In this document: positions 1,881-59,923 of the stretch, piece by piece | Numbering within the stretch: the first letter of the stretch is position 1 | Layout: every line of letters begins with the position of its first letter | Assembly (NCBI GenBank): GCA_964016885.1 | Contig: OZ024745.1 | Span: forward strand, 93,372,001-93,436,000 | DNA length: 64,000 nucleotides | Direction of reading: 5' to 3' | From: Eledone cirrhosa | Lineage: Eukaryota | Notes under the pieces: generated by a model | What the model saw: only the letters and a program-made list of their open reading frames with translations | Databases searched by the model: none | Told to the model about the DNA's origin: nothing | Position numbers and translations under genes: made by a program

Positions 1881-2295
1881 ATATGAAAAGATTCAGGACC
1901 CCGACGGCTGAGCTCCAGCTGTTTCAACAGCTAGATCCAGACTAAATTGCGGGTATTTGAACAGCAGGAATCTAGTTGAACTTATCATTTGGCCATGTCT
2001 AGCCTCTCACTACCAAAAATGTAATAAATAAAATACACGACATTTAGCAAGACTATACCAGCCATTTGATCAAAGGTCCCCCCCCCCCCGCCCCCAGATC
2101 ACTGACCACTACCGAAAAAAACAGCTAACTTAAAATTTTTGGGATCATTTTTGCTTTGACTGTATGCCCATATATGGACTGTACCCCTTGATAAGTTCAG
2201 CTAGATTTCCGCCGTTCAAATACTGGTGATTTAGTTCGGATCTAACTGCCAAAATAGCCACAGCTCAGCCATAGGAGTCCTGAATCTTTTCATAT
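1881..2295. repeat. Diverged inverted pair of PLE pLTR fragments carrying degenerate U3-A8 hammerheads
   Basis: 1881-1988 is the approximate reverse complement of 2188-2295; consensus CCCC-TTGATAA-long stem II-GAAA-CAGCTG..CAGCCG-TC-GGGG. Confidence 0.6.
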
Positions 2296-2373
2296 ATATA
2301 TATATATATATATATATATATATATATATATATATATATATATATATTCCCTTGCAAGCAGGGAAAAGCGGAC

Positions 2374-3199
2374 GACTCCTTCTTCCTCACTTTTCGTTGC
2401 TTCACCATCTTTGTCTGTTTACACTCTCGTGTCCCCTTTATTTATGTGTCCCAACGACTTTTTTTAGCCGTTGCTCGCACCAACCGGAGGTATATGGTCT
2501 TTAAAGCGATGAAAAACCAATGATGGTTGGAAGATCACTGATGAAGGACTAACTTTATTCATATGTAACCCATTAGCAACCACGCAGCACGTTTATTCTC
2601 ATATTTACACATATTTTTTTCCCCGCTGTGACCCGTCTATTTCGTTCTTACTGCTTCCTCTTTCTCTGTATCTTTACCCTCTCTAGCAGTCACTCTCTCT
2701 GTTAGCCTCTTCCCCACCCTTCACTCACTCATTCTCTGTTACTACCTCTCCTCCTCCTCCTTCTTCCCGTTTGACCTGTGCGTAATTCTTTTCTTTCGCA
2801 CCCTTGGTCAGGCAGGTCGCTTTTTTTCTCTCTCTCGTCTGCGATTTCACAGAACTTACGTTCACCGAATTCACAGACTAGATTCCTTCTTCCCCCCGTT
2901 AGACCTGTACGGAATTCCTTCCTTGCTCACATTCCAACCAGGTTTGATGGTCTTTATTCTCTCTCGTTCACGATTTCACCGAATTTATATTCATGGAAAT
3001 TTGGGACTTGACTCCTTCTTCCTCACTTTTCGTTGCTTCACCATCTTTGTCTGTTTACACTCTCGTGTCCCCTTTATTTACGTGTCCCAACGACTTTTTT
3101 TAGCCGTTGCTCGCACCAACCGGAGGTATATGGTCTTTAAAGCGATGAACTACCAATGATGGTTGGAAGATCACTGATGAAGGACTAACTTTATTCATA
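2374..3199. repeat. About 187-bp near-identical direct repeat (2374-2560 and 3010-3199) around a CT-rich spacer
   Basis: gactccttcttcctcacttttcg...gatcactgatgaaggactaactttattcatat occurs twice. Confidence 0.9.
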
Positions 3200-3225
3200 T
3201 ATATATATATATATATATATATATA

Positions 3226-5023
3226 TCATCATCATCGTTTAACGTCTATCTTCCACACTAGCATGGGTTTAGACGGGAATTGTCCCACTTGAGGCAAGAT
3301 TGGTCGTCTCGCTCGTATGGGACTGTCTGGCAGGTTTTCTATGGCTGGTTGCCCTTCCTAACACTAACCACGTTTACAGTGTGGACTGGGAGGTTTTCAC
3401 CATGTTACCTACATAGTCACATTACAGCGTGGACTGTGTGTTTTTTTGTCGTGACACCTACACGACCTCATTTATTTAGCACTGGATGTTGTAGTACCAA
3501 CATAACTTTTCAGATAAAGGGGTGGTGTTGATGGGGGTGGGGGAGTTGGGGGTAGTGGGAGGGGGATGCATATTTGATTAAGAGGTGCCTATTGACTGTA
3601 GGTTTCGCTTTGTACTTAGGCAAGGCGGGTTTTCTGTATTACTGCGTGACGCCAAAGATCTCGGTCCAGTGACATTGTCTTAGAGAGGTGTAAGTGTGTA
3701 AGGTCGGAATTTATCAAATCATCCCAGGTTTTTATGGGTCTGCCTACTCTGTAATTTCCGTCAATTTTGATCGCCCTGCACTTTTTTTTATACAGCTGTC
3801 GGCTTTCATGCGCATCATGTGACCATACCATCGTAGTCTTTTGAGTAAATAGCATCTGATCCCTCTTATACCTAATTTCTCACTTAGTTCATTTATGCTT
3901 TGCTGTTCACATATATTACTATTACACATCCAGTGGAGCATGCATGCTTTGTTACTCTCCAGTCTGTGCAGATCCTCTGCACACAATGCCCCTGTCTCAC
4001 GGCCATGTAACATAGCTGTTCATATGCAGGCATCATACAGTATGCCTTTCATTTTTATAGAGAAACCTTTAGCGGCCAATAGTGGTATAAGCTCTCTGAA
4101 CTTTTTCCATCCCGTTCTGACTCTAGCTACTGTACTTTCTGAGCACCCTCCACCACTGCTGATTTTGTCACTCGGGTAACGGAAGGTGTCCACTATTTCT
4201 ATAGAGCCATCTGGGAAATAGAAGGAGCTAGTATCCTGTGGGCGCTTGCTACTTATTGCACCTGAGCACCGGCCGGCCACATATAAAATCTACGTTCTTA
4301 GATTGCTTACCTGTGATCCCACTACATCTTTTATGCACCCATACTTTGCATTTGGGACATACAATGGAATTTATGCCTACTCTTTTCCTACACACTAAGC
4401 ATGGCCATTTTCCAGAGGGGGACCTGTGGCCTATTTTCCTTCCTAGACAAGTTAATTTTAAGGCCTTTTGATTCTGAGGGGCAATAATAAATAGGAGGGG
4501 GTTAGGACAGAACCCTGATGGACACCAACTTTTATGCTAAATTCTTCACTATATTCGTTGTTAATTCTAACCTTGCTGACTGTTTCTTTATACATGGCTT
4601 GTATAGCTCTCACAAGCCATTCATCAACCCCTAGTTTTCTAAGAGCCCACCAGATAATGGCGCAGGGAACTCTGTCAAAGGCTTTCTCCAAGTCAACAAA
4701 AGTTAAGTAGAGGGGTTTACTTTTAGCTAGGTACTTCTCCTGTAATTGTCGTACAAGGAAAAGGGCGTCTGTGGTACTTTTACCTGACACAAACCCAAAC
4801 TGAATTTTGTCTAGATCAATTTGCTCTCTGATTAGTTGCGCTATAACTTTTTCTGTGGCCTTCATGACCTAGTCAATTAATTTAATGCCTCTATAGTTTC
4901 CTCTATCTAGTGCATCTCCTTTACCCTTGTAGCAGTTAATGATGATGCTGCTACGCCAGTCATTTGGTATTACCCCGTTCTGTATGACTTGGTTTACTAT
5001 CCGTGTGACCATAGTGTGTCCCA
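3226..5023 (-). mobile_element. RTE-BovB LINE family A, 5'-truncated, internally deleted, degenerate
   Basis: ORF pieces with FVDLEKAFDRVP, GVHQGSVL, RLRWYGH; 3' UTR ends in (GAT)n; close match to 10049-12768. Confidence 0.9.
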
Positions 5024-5330
5024 ATATATATAAATTAATTACCTAATACGTTTTTACATTAAATAATGATTTATCATAAAATTTAATGTAAAAACGTATT
5101 TTGTAATTACTTTAATGAATAATTAGCTTCATGCGTAATTATTACTTTTAACAATAGGATTTTGTATCCATGCTTATTTGAAAAACCTTTCAAGGAAGTA
5201 TGAAGCACAGCCTTTTGTACTATCTATTATAATAAGTTATTGTATTTTGAACTGTTTTAACTTTTCCACCAACCTCTTTCCAATTTTTATATTGTTATGT
5301 AAAAAACGATATTTGTTTCATATACATATA

Positions 5331-58300: not shown

Positions 58301-59296
58301 AGAATAGTAGCTAGTAATGTCCATCTGGATGAATTTATGATTTTTCTTATCATCTATATTCGTGTACCATTCTATGACTTCGTTTGTATCTTTCCATAAG
58401 CTCAAGTTAGATTTCAATTTAAGAGTGGGTAATATTCTATCTATGATGTTTTTACTGATTACTCCAATATCCGATTTGGATGGAGCAATCAATCTAACTG
58501 GCATATCTTCCTCGAAGTTTCTTTTGTGATCCTTCAAGTTAATCCTCGGCTGCCTAGGTATAAATGGCTCGGTTCTTCCTTCTATTCCTAAATTGGTAAT
58601 TAATTTGTAGGCTTCTTCATTAATTTCAGTAAGATCATCAGCCGGGGCTTTTTTGTAATTTTTCCTAAGTTCCTTTAAAACAAGTTGTTATATTCATCTT
58701 TGTTTATCCCATATAAATTATTAGTTTTGTCCGATTTAACCAATACTTTGTTAACATTTTTTATTTTCGTGATTTTTTCTTTTAGAGTTCTAAGGTATTG
58801 GTGACCTATATATGGGTTTTTCCTAAATTTAATATTTTTGATTATACCGAGCATTTCTGTTTCAAAAACCTCCAGAAGTTTGTTGTATGGAGGATTCTTT
58901 CTTGATTTAAATAAAGATTCAAAATGATTGTTGATGGTTTTTCTTTCAGCATCTTTATTTTCGAAATGAAATGCTCTCCATCTCAATCTTCTAATAAAAG
59001 AGTTTGTCTGTTCGATAGTTTTCCTTATCTATTCTTCATTTGAAGGTATTGGTATATCCTTGAGGGATGTCGGGAAGGTTACGAAATCCACATTTATTGA
59101 ATATGCAATCTATTGTATAGAAAAGCGCTCAACCAGTTGGGAGCAGTATATATTAAAGAGTTAAACAAGATTGAATGAGTATATCAGAGAATGAGTTTTA
59201 CAGTAGATTGGAAGCACGCTACGGTAAATAATTTTCCAGAGTTATTAATATTAAAATACAAATATTAATAAAATAGATGTTCTTTTGATCAATTAC

Positions 59297-59349
59297 ATTT
59301 TATTATACATATTTCGGATGTACAACAGTACGCCCTCATCAGACAAAAT
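59297..59349 (-). ncRNA. Hammerhead ribozyme in 5' pLTR
   Basis: Copy of 55338-55390 with few substitutions in stem/loop II. Confidence 0.87.
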
Positions 59350-59691
59350 ATAATGATACATGACATACCCTGTTTAACTCTTTAATATATATATATTTAA
59401 TGTATAATATAATTTATACATTAAATATTTAGCCCTGTAACTTACATAGAGCACTCTTCATTCCTCTGACTTTTTTAACGGAAACTTCAACACACACACA
59501 GACACATACACATATATATAAATATATGGATTGTTGGATATATATATATGTGGATTATTGGTTGGTTAGTTCCACAACCGGACGGTTGTTCCTATATTGT
59601 CAAAGTTCTTTGACATATATATATATGTGACACAACACACACAAAAACAAGATACAAAGGAGAGGCACAAAAACAAAGAAAAAAATCCCCA

Positions 59692-59734
59692 GTCACTGAA
59701 GAGGTCATAGTATGTGTGACGAAAGAACTTTGAC
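59692..59734 (+). ncRNA. Hammerhead ribozyme in partial fold-back 59559-59886
   Basis: gtca-CTGAAGA-g-GTCATA gtatg TGTGAC-GAAA-gaac-TT-tgac; same family as 34092-34545. Confidence 0.87.
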
Positions 59735-59923
59735 AATATATGAACAACCGTCCGGTTGTGGAACCAACCAACCAACCGGAATTTTATAAATTCTTAAATT
59801 TATAAATTTAATTTATAATAAATTGGAGTGAAAGCAACTGGTGCGTGTGTTTCTTATTGGCAACATGACCCTCCCAAAGCATAACTATATATATATATAT
59901 ATATATATATATATATATATATA

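Follow-up and report, generated by a model that had tools for sequence, protein, structure and literature searches.

The 64,000-nucleotide stretch of the Eledone cirrhosa genome analysed here (assembly GCA_964016885.1, contig OZ024745.1, positions 93,372,001 to 93,436,000; hereafter the window) carries a set of short hairpins built from the pseudo-long terminal repeats (pLTRs) of Penelope-like elements (PLEs). These hairpins are real and of a known kind, with a new mechanistic signature, and they do not constitute a new class of retrozymes or of miniature inverted-repeat transposable elements (MITEs). They are probably minimal head-to-head PLE insertions, in which reverse transcription was target-primed from both sides of a cut in a (TA)n tract, the cDNAs ran off at the capped start of the RNA, and their ends were joined. 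An earlier sequence-only reading of the window, which listed eight inverted structures of invariant polarity beside TA tracts, had ascribed them to cDNAs primed at both ends of a break on the 3′ ends of PLE RNA; the joining of cDNAs from both break ends is what we infer as well, with priming placed instead at two internal sites that bound a tail.

Self-alignment of the window with microsatellites masked recovered all eight inverted repeats (S1 to S8) in their listed places, together with a ninth that had been overlooked (Table 1); the output of a stock inverted-repeat finder was dominated by TA tracts. Paired arms are 53–241 bp long, their identity being about 80% in S1 and 95–100% in the other seven, and folding z-scores lie at about −21 to −25 for S2, S3 and S6. 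Compared with real parent copies, 8 of 8 structures have a left arm of minus sense and a right arm of plus sense. They derive from five PLE families, namely A (S1, S2), B (S3, S6), C (S4 and the ninth hairpin), D (S5, S8) and E (S7). In S1, S2, S4, S5, S6 and S7 the left arm extends beyond the pairing into a tail of 50–105 nt, which lies outside the coordinates first given.

The same polarity holds beyond the window, in a sample of the 3.0-Gb genome taken as 100 evenly spaced 10-kb stretches (1 Mb in total). Directly joined pairs (≤300 bp) are head-to-head in 54 cases and tail-to-tail in none, and a single direct pair lies on the same strand; the eight tail-to-tail pairs found in this megabase have a microsatellite between them and look like neighbours. 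In a family-blind test, 20 of 274 inverted-repeat rows detected de novo had a hammerhead match, and 19 of these pointed outward and 1 inward. Arms of the five families occupy about 2.4% of the sampled megabase, and the extrapolated genome total is about 1.6 × 10^5 hairpins (Poisson range about 1.2–2.1 × 10^5). For one young family A subfamily, 7,266 exact close junctions were counted genome-wide, against 0 for the control.

The arms are pLTR sequence of endonuclease-positive (EN+) PLE families whose parents encode a reverse transcriptase (RT) and a GIY-YIG endonuclease, which agrees with the PLE origin first proposed. Locus L079 is a 5′-truncated element with RT and GIY-YIG-type frames and a 180-bp inverted tail-less arm, locus L146 holds an intact 721-aa family A open reading frame (ORF), and in 9 of 30 RT-bearing family A loci the upstream pLTR and its tail run on into the ORF. 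Among 8,000 scored candidates, at least 2,009 are homologues of this 721-aa ORF, nearly all of them unnamed among the matches listed; the ORF has no Pfam match of its own, its best homologue carries PF01541, and Pfam overlooks most PLE ORFs. By inspection, the 721-aa ORF shows a C-terminal GIY-YIG-type end and the motifs RWR (RWK-like), DKT, CxCx5C, CxxC and CxH, the last three of which are also present in a family C remnant, whereas family D has a Cx4CxxC linker. The RT and endonuclease parents of families C and D, whose frames were read by motif, resemble those of family A; a search for the family B parent found no ORF. At L146 (540–726) no stop interrupts the frame in the roughly 60 codons preceding the first Met, from ribozyme stem III through the tail, and several full-length copies show the same. 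Seven copies of one family B fragment, with near-identical flanks, lie within the first 5.6 Mb of contig C1 (L226–L230, L234 and L237), and the fragment is therefore part of another repeat or duplication.

The hammerhead ribozymes that the sequence-only reading had seen in every arm, whole or as a 3′ part, were recovered in some of them. A custom type I descriptor gave 14 matches in the window and 0 in each of five shuffles, including both arms of S4, the left arm of S5 and the right arm of S8, which has a full hammerhead; S2 retains the 3′ half only, and S1 has a degraded core of the U3-A8 type, the variant found in family A. The descriptor matches parent copies of families A–D and found no match in those of family E. 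No hammerhead family occurs among 150 of the 154 Rfam matches to the window (E ≤ 1), which are mostly TA-repeat microRNA (miRNA) noise. The hairpins had also been described as ORF-less, which does not apply to S7, where a GIY-YIG frame lies in the spacer in front of a 241-bp tail-less inverted pLTR (55023–55263).

The ends of the arms are best resolved in family A, for which 85 arms with one exact 19-nt anchor were collected from contig C1 (2.2–18.5 Mb) and their ends set by exact extension; they collapse to 63 rows, comprising 43 close hairpins, 14 long arms and 6 others. At the 3′ side, 82 of the 85 arms end at site 1 (49 arms) or site 2 (33) and there abut an AT repeat, in line with the TA flanks noticed in the window, and the same two loose ends appear in raw reads of three other samples (1,966–2,291 and 5,430–7,124 reads). 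Nearly every close hairpin combines one tail arm, ending at site 2, with one tail-less arm, ending at site 1 (41 of 43), and in the remaining two the tail is damaged on one arm. The arm reaching further at its 5′ end is the tail-less one in 22 of these 41 and the tail arm in 14, with equal lengths in 5. Since either arm may be longer, a single fold-back cDNA cannot yield these hairpins; nor could a tail-less cDNA, on folding back, serve as template for a tail, which makes two cDNAs the simpler explanation. Any target-site duplication is unreadable inside the (TA)n flanks.

The centres are variable, as the sequence-only reading had remarked: a hand count in genome order gives 27 distinct centres among 50 family A sites, the commonest of which is present at nine and that of S2 at one. 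Because they differ base by base, each hairpin arises anew. Junctions show an overlap of 2–4 nt in 14 of 43 cases, when about 9% would be expected, an overlap of 1 nt in 11, and a blunt joint or filler in 18. Gene conversion between arms is not supported, given that singletons are equally frequent in paired arms (29 in 3,384 sites) and unpaired tails (20 in 2,405).

At their other end, the arms pile up at positions that likely mark the start of the RNA, probably a capped one, as judged from the sequence around them. By exact matching, 37,277 family A arms reach the anchor, and the number drops to 17,544 with 6 nt added upstream, 9,693 with 8 nt and 3,199 with 14 nt, the last obtained with a probe shorter at its 3′ side than the others. 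The distance from the anchor to the hammerhead core is 49 nt, and the 5′ half of that core is not reached by about 91% of young family A arms. The 6-nt position is located 29 nt after a TATA-like box and is an A in what we take to be an initiator-like context. The parents have T or C just before it; in 3,496 cases the arm has a purine there, and the first 100 of these comprise 87 G and 13 A, against 4 G and 15 A in 100 rows at a control position, 10 nt upstream. Among 30 cases examined, 15 of 23 G's have no explanation in the partner arm, and seven adjacent pairs bear the extra G on both arms.

Of the 56 short arms in family B, 19 stop at a point 30 nt downstream of a canonical TATA box, which is present in 8 long arms, and two go further; 9 of 52 family C arms end within 3 nt of each other; and 12 of 54 family D arms end across 14 nt just upstream of a motif that matches the YY1 site given in PMC11602158. 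In the window, one arm of S2, and likewise of S4, S5, S6 and S8, falls in or close to the 5′-end zone of its family. The minus arm of S2, which has (TA)n flanks on both sides, ends 1 nt inside the putative start; the plus arm of S4 begins at the family C pile-up, 88 nt before the core, and that of S5 begins 65 nt before the core, within the family D cluster. The plus arm of S6 starts 30 nt after the TATA box of the parent, and the base in front of it is G, against C in the parent. The cDNAs are short, as first suggested, likely through run-off at the RNA 5′ end and not through random truncation. Hammerhead cleavage was considered as the cause of these 5′ ends and rejected, the pile-ups being located elsewhere. 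A depth step at L146:502 in restriction-site-associated DNA reads was left unused, as molecules end there on AATT sites, likely a restriction cut.

The events that would account for these features begin with a cut in (TA)n, after which both break ends would prime reverse transcription on PLE RNA, each using one of the two internal sites bounding the tail; such priming would produce termini that are fixed but unequal. In family A the two sites are placed about 60 and 140 nt after the predicted pLTR transcription start and before the ORF, so that a pLTR-initiated RNA, either the 5′ end of the mRNA or a short pLTR transcript, would yield two run-off cDNAs. Copying would end at the cap, an added C there reading as the extra G, and the two short cDNAs would be trimmed and then joined blunt, by 1–4 nt of microhomology, or with filler. 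Rarer long forms such as S7 would result when a long RNA is primed at its downstream pLTR. The ribozyme would be a passenger, as short family A arms are without the first half of its core and the arms of perfect hairpins would pair together instead.

This scheme has published parallels. Purified protein of PAc Poseidon cuts and extends both strands of AT-rich DNA, uses two internal RNA start sites that bound a tail, is predicted to form a dimer and can dispense with ribozyme cleavage; its sites are inside the ORF and show no strand difference, whereas here they fall within the 5′ untranslated region (UTR) and one of each is used per insertion, and no inverted product is described in the passages available (PMC11167929). 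L1 twin priming likewise starts from both break ends, joins the cDNAs end to end and leaves an extra G at full-length 5′ junctions, which is attributed to copying of the cap, but it copies adjacent parts of the RNA and gives an inversion, while copying the same part twice gives a palindrome (PMC11702581). It is about an even chance that the hairpins are fossil "strong-stop" pairs, for which a PLE dimer obligately primes both ends, one per tail boundary, and copies the capped 5′ end twice before the pair is ligated. In that case all EN+ PLE insertions would consist of two cDNAs, which would explain inverted pLTRs and one-sided tails without self-priming, and the dead-end route would be a leading source of perfect 55–250-bp hairpins (about 160,000) in the genome.

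Several points weigh against double priming with run-off at a capped start. The family A set is restricted to the first 18.5 Mb of contig C1 and to one exact anchor, and the start sites are predicted from motifs and the extra G. The main site is passed by 2–7 nt in about 6,500 family A arms (17% of anchor arms), which extend as far as the stem II apical loop at its 3′ edge; this implies that a second start or RT arrest contributes. Many of the extra G's in family B could stem from the partner arm, and the ends of 28 of its 56 short arms lie further downstream; family C is without a canonical TATA box at −30, and the ends in C and D are widely spread. The commonest centre can be read as a 6-nt end, or as a 10-nt end with a 4-nt overlap. 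On whether one RNA or two were copied, the arms point both ways: family A divergence is 2.5% within units and 7.8% between them, yet about 3 of 36 units have discordant arms. Finally, S3, with tail-less arms and symmetric flanks, and locus L187 (1250–2050), where the same junction occurs twice, inverted, across a TA tract, do not fit, and this suggests a minor DNA-level or read-through route.

Some of these points would be expected if the same double priming and joining took place while the short arms ended where RT stalled on structured RNA or reached an RNA end that was processed and uncapped. The arms beyond the 6-nt site, the fact that no close family A arm extends beyond the stem II apical loop at its 3′ edge, and the spread in C and D all suit a stall, which we nevertheless consider unlikely: the extra G is position-specific, the pile-ups of B, C and D are upstream of the ribozyme and outside its stems, the 29–30-nt spacing from a TATA box recurs in A and B, and nothing accumulates at the hammerhead cleavage site. 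Self-priming, in which one cDNA or antisense transcript folds back and copies itself, has been proposed for head-to-head Penelope palindromes (PMC3846280). It would account for subfamily variants common to both arms (with both-arm variants in L010, L021, L029 and L030), for the excess of overlaps of at least 2 nt and for the symmetric flanks of S3; it is quite unlikely all the same, because it does not predict the one-tail rule, because 18 of 43 junctions are without overlap or contain filler, because copying the tail-less arm, the longer one in 22 of 41, cannot give the tail of its partner, and because of the seven pairs with an extra G on both arms.

The hairpins might alternatively be copied as whole units by a self-propagating non-autonomous class, MITE-like or retrozyme-like. 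A first search with S2 suggested such a fixed unit, 40 of 40 scored candidates matching at 97–100% and 39 of them over the full length, and L187 repeats one junction; this unit was rejected as a seeding bias, since the search was seeded on centre words, while the words of a tail-only query were too common and returned nothing. With the unbiased count of centres, in which that of S2 appears once, the unequal termini and the near-absence of same-strand pairs, whole-unit copying is very improbable. Inverted duplication at the DNA level, acting on solo pLTR fragments once they had inserted and proceeding through cruciform or hairpin repair at TA tracts and later arm conversion, could be invoked for S3, for L187 and for TA-centred inverted flank duplications, which do exist (window 1680–1770). 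It is hardly credible for the rest, as it would carry tail and flank along with the arm, and equal singleton rates give no sign of conversion. Fold-back chimeras of long-read sequencing or assembly deserve next to no weight. The eight window junctions are without individual raw-read spans and that of S7 is absent from the listing of run X1, but arms diverge with age (80–100% identity), the two ends are fixed and unequal, flanks are unlike each other, five other family E junctions are present in contigs of run X1 (possibly the sample behind the assembly itself), and raw reads of other samples contain a few strand-switch joints.

MITEs are defined by symmetric terminal inverted repeats, uniform length, a cognate DNA transposase and a target-site duplication. 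The hairpins are not MITEs: their termini are fixed but unequal, their centres vary, and their arms map to RT and GIY-YIG parents, not to a cognate DNA transposase. Nor do they form the retrozyme-like class that the sequence-only reading had considered. Non-LTR retrozymes are likewise ORF-less, PLE-derived and equipped with a type I hammerhead, but they are head-to-tail tandem units with complete ribozymes, in contrast to head-to-head pairs whose short family A arms are without half of the core (bioRxiv 10.64898/2026.07.22.740005, available passages). Tandem arrays were not found, centres are not inherited, one direct same-strand pair stands against 54 head-to-head ones, and only 3,199 of 37,277 arms pass 14 nt beyond the anchor, with the core at 49 nt.

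Inverted pLTRs, one-sided tails, a (TA)n bias and opposite-strand hammerhead pairs have all been published. PLE insertions with an inverted, 5′-truncated copy at the 5′ junction share the head-to-head arrangement, the tail at one end and the preference for (TA)n (PMC8557442, fig. 2; PMC3846280; PMC2377424); as far as these sources are available, the present hairpins differ in consisting mostly of two 55–250-bp arms only, in their near-strict one-tail rule, in tails of 50–105 nt instead of 30–40, and in 5′ ends concentrated at a likely start site, where an extra G is found. Minimal hammerhead pairs of Schistosoma mansoni are on opposite strands, 100–700 bp apart, and are ascribed to truncated PLEs whose ribozymes have the same U3-A8 core variant as family A; the available passages give no polarity, tail rule or mechanism for them (PMC4209133). 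A search of PMC3088659 for terms describing this variant gave no match. Family A resembles the Hydra clade in its GIY-YIG-type end, RWK-like RWR, DKT, CxCx5C, CxxC and CxH motifs, (TA)n targets and hammerhead (PMC8557442, section 11), and the parents of families A and C would belong to this (TA)n-inserting clade by their motifs, whereas family D differs in its Cx4CxxC linker, as in Neptune and Nematis (PMC8557442). The near-strict one-tail rule, the start-site pile-up and the cap-like G were not found for PLEs in the literature searched, which left most subscription papers outside its scope.

The origin of tandem and inverted PLE structures has been called undefined (PMC8557442, available passages), and double priming would help account for their inverted ends. 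Tens of thousands of natural junctions favour two separate cDNAs and tie them to two start sites known in vitro, and they predict transcription starts to the base, at L146:495 for family A, 30 nt downstream of the TATA box for B, and 88 and about 70 nt upstream of the core for C and D, respectively. To annotation tools, the arms would resemble MITEs or miRNA hairpins; if transcribed, they could form long double-stranded RNA stems, which the sequence-only reading had proposed as putative substrates of ADAR or sources of siRNA.

Table 1. Hairpins and associated coding remnant in the window (positions of the window).
Feature	Position	Strand	Parts	Remarks
S1, old family A hairpin	1796..2295		minus arm with tail ~1796–2055; tail-less plus arm ~2165–2295	paired parts ~80% identical
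S2, young family A hairpin	5512..5703		minus arm 5512–5647 (tail 5512–5587); plus arm 5649–5703	1-nt filler between arms
Ninth hairpin, family C	29169..29378		tail arm on left	absent from the sequence-only reading
S3, family B, atypical	29726..29876		both arms tail-less	symmetry extends ~30 bp into flank
S4, family C	31891..32331		minus arm with tail 31891–32130; plus arm 32144–32331	full hammerhead in each arm
S5, family D	34034..34545		minus arm with tail 34034–34288; plus arm 34289–34545	
S6, family B	44156..44365		minus arm with tail 44156–44289; plus arm from 44292	
S7, family E, classic 5′-truncated PLE	54028..55263	minus	tail, pLTR, 3′ UTR, endonuclease end	
GIY-YIG endonuclease coding remnant in S7	54645..55022	minus		Pfam E 8.3e-08
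S8, family D, atypical	59513..59890		degraded short minus arm 59513–59611; microsatellite; tail-less plus arm 59630–59890	

Of the eight structures, six have an intact tail arm, in every case on the minus strand, like most PLE and long interspersed nuclear element (LINE) frames of the window, and this is possibly an orientation bias from a host transcript. The duplication at 1680–1770 is an inversion of about 24 bp around (TA)21, upstream of a minus-strand hammerhead at 1634, and has TA at its centre, unlike the eight hairpins. An imperfect 234-bp palindrome (77%) at 33674–33907 lies in sequence similar to a PLE endonuclease end and is located just before a hammerhead-like motif at about 33940, and more inverted repeats, not assigned to families A–E, are present at 29443–30247, 5031–5114 and 59390–59431. 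Hammerhead motifs from other PLE families occur at 1634, 7271, 21931, 53390, 55383 and 59342. Remnants of RT or endonuclease, all on the minus strand, are found at 1–678, 7745–9723 and 56803–58687. At 24918–27155 (−), 42431–43720 (−) and 13450–14377 (+) there are, going by their motifs, presumably long frames of LINE-type RTs and a restriction-endonuclease-like remnant. Elsewhere in the genome, locus L218 (1350–2250) has three tandem solo arms with a common flank.

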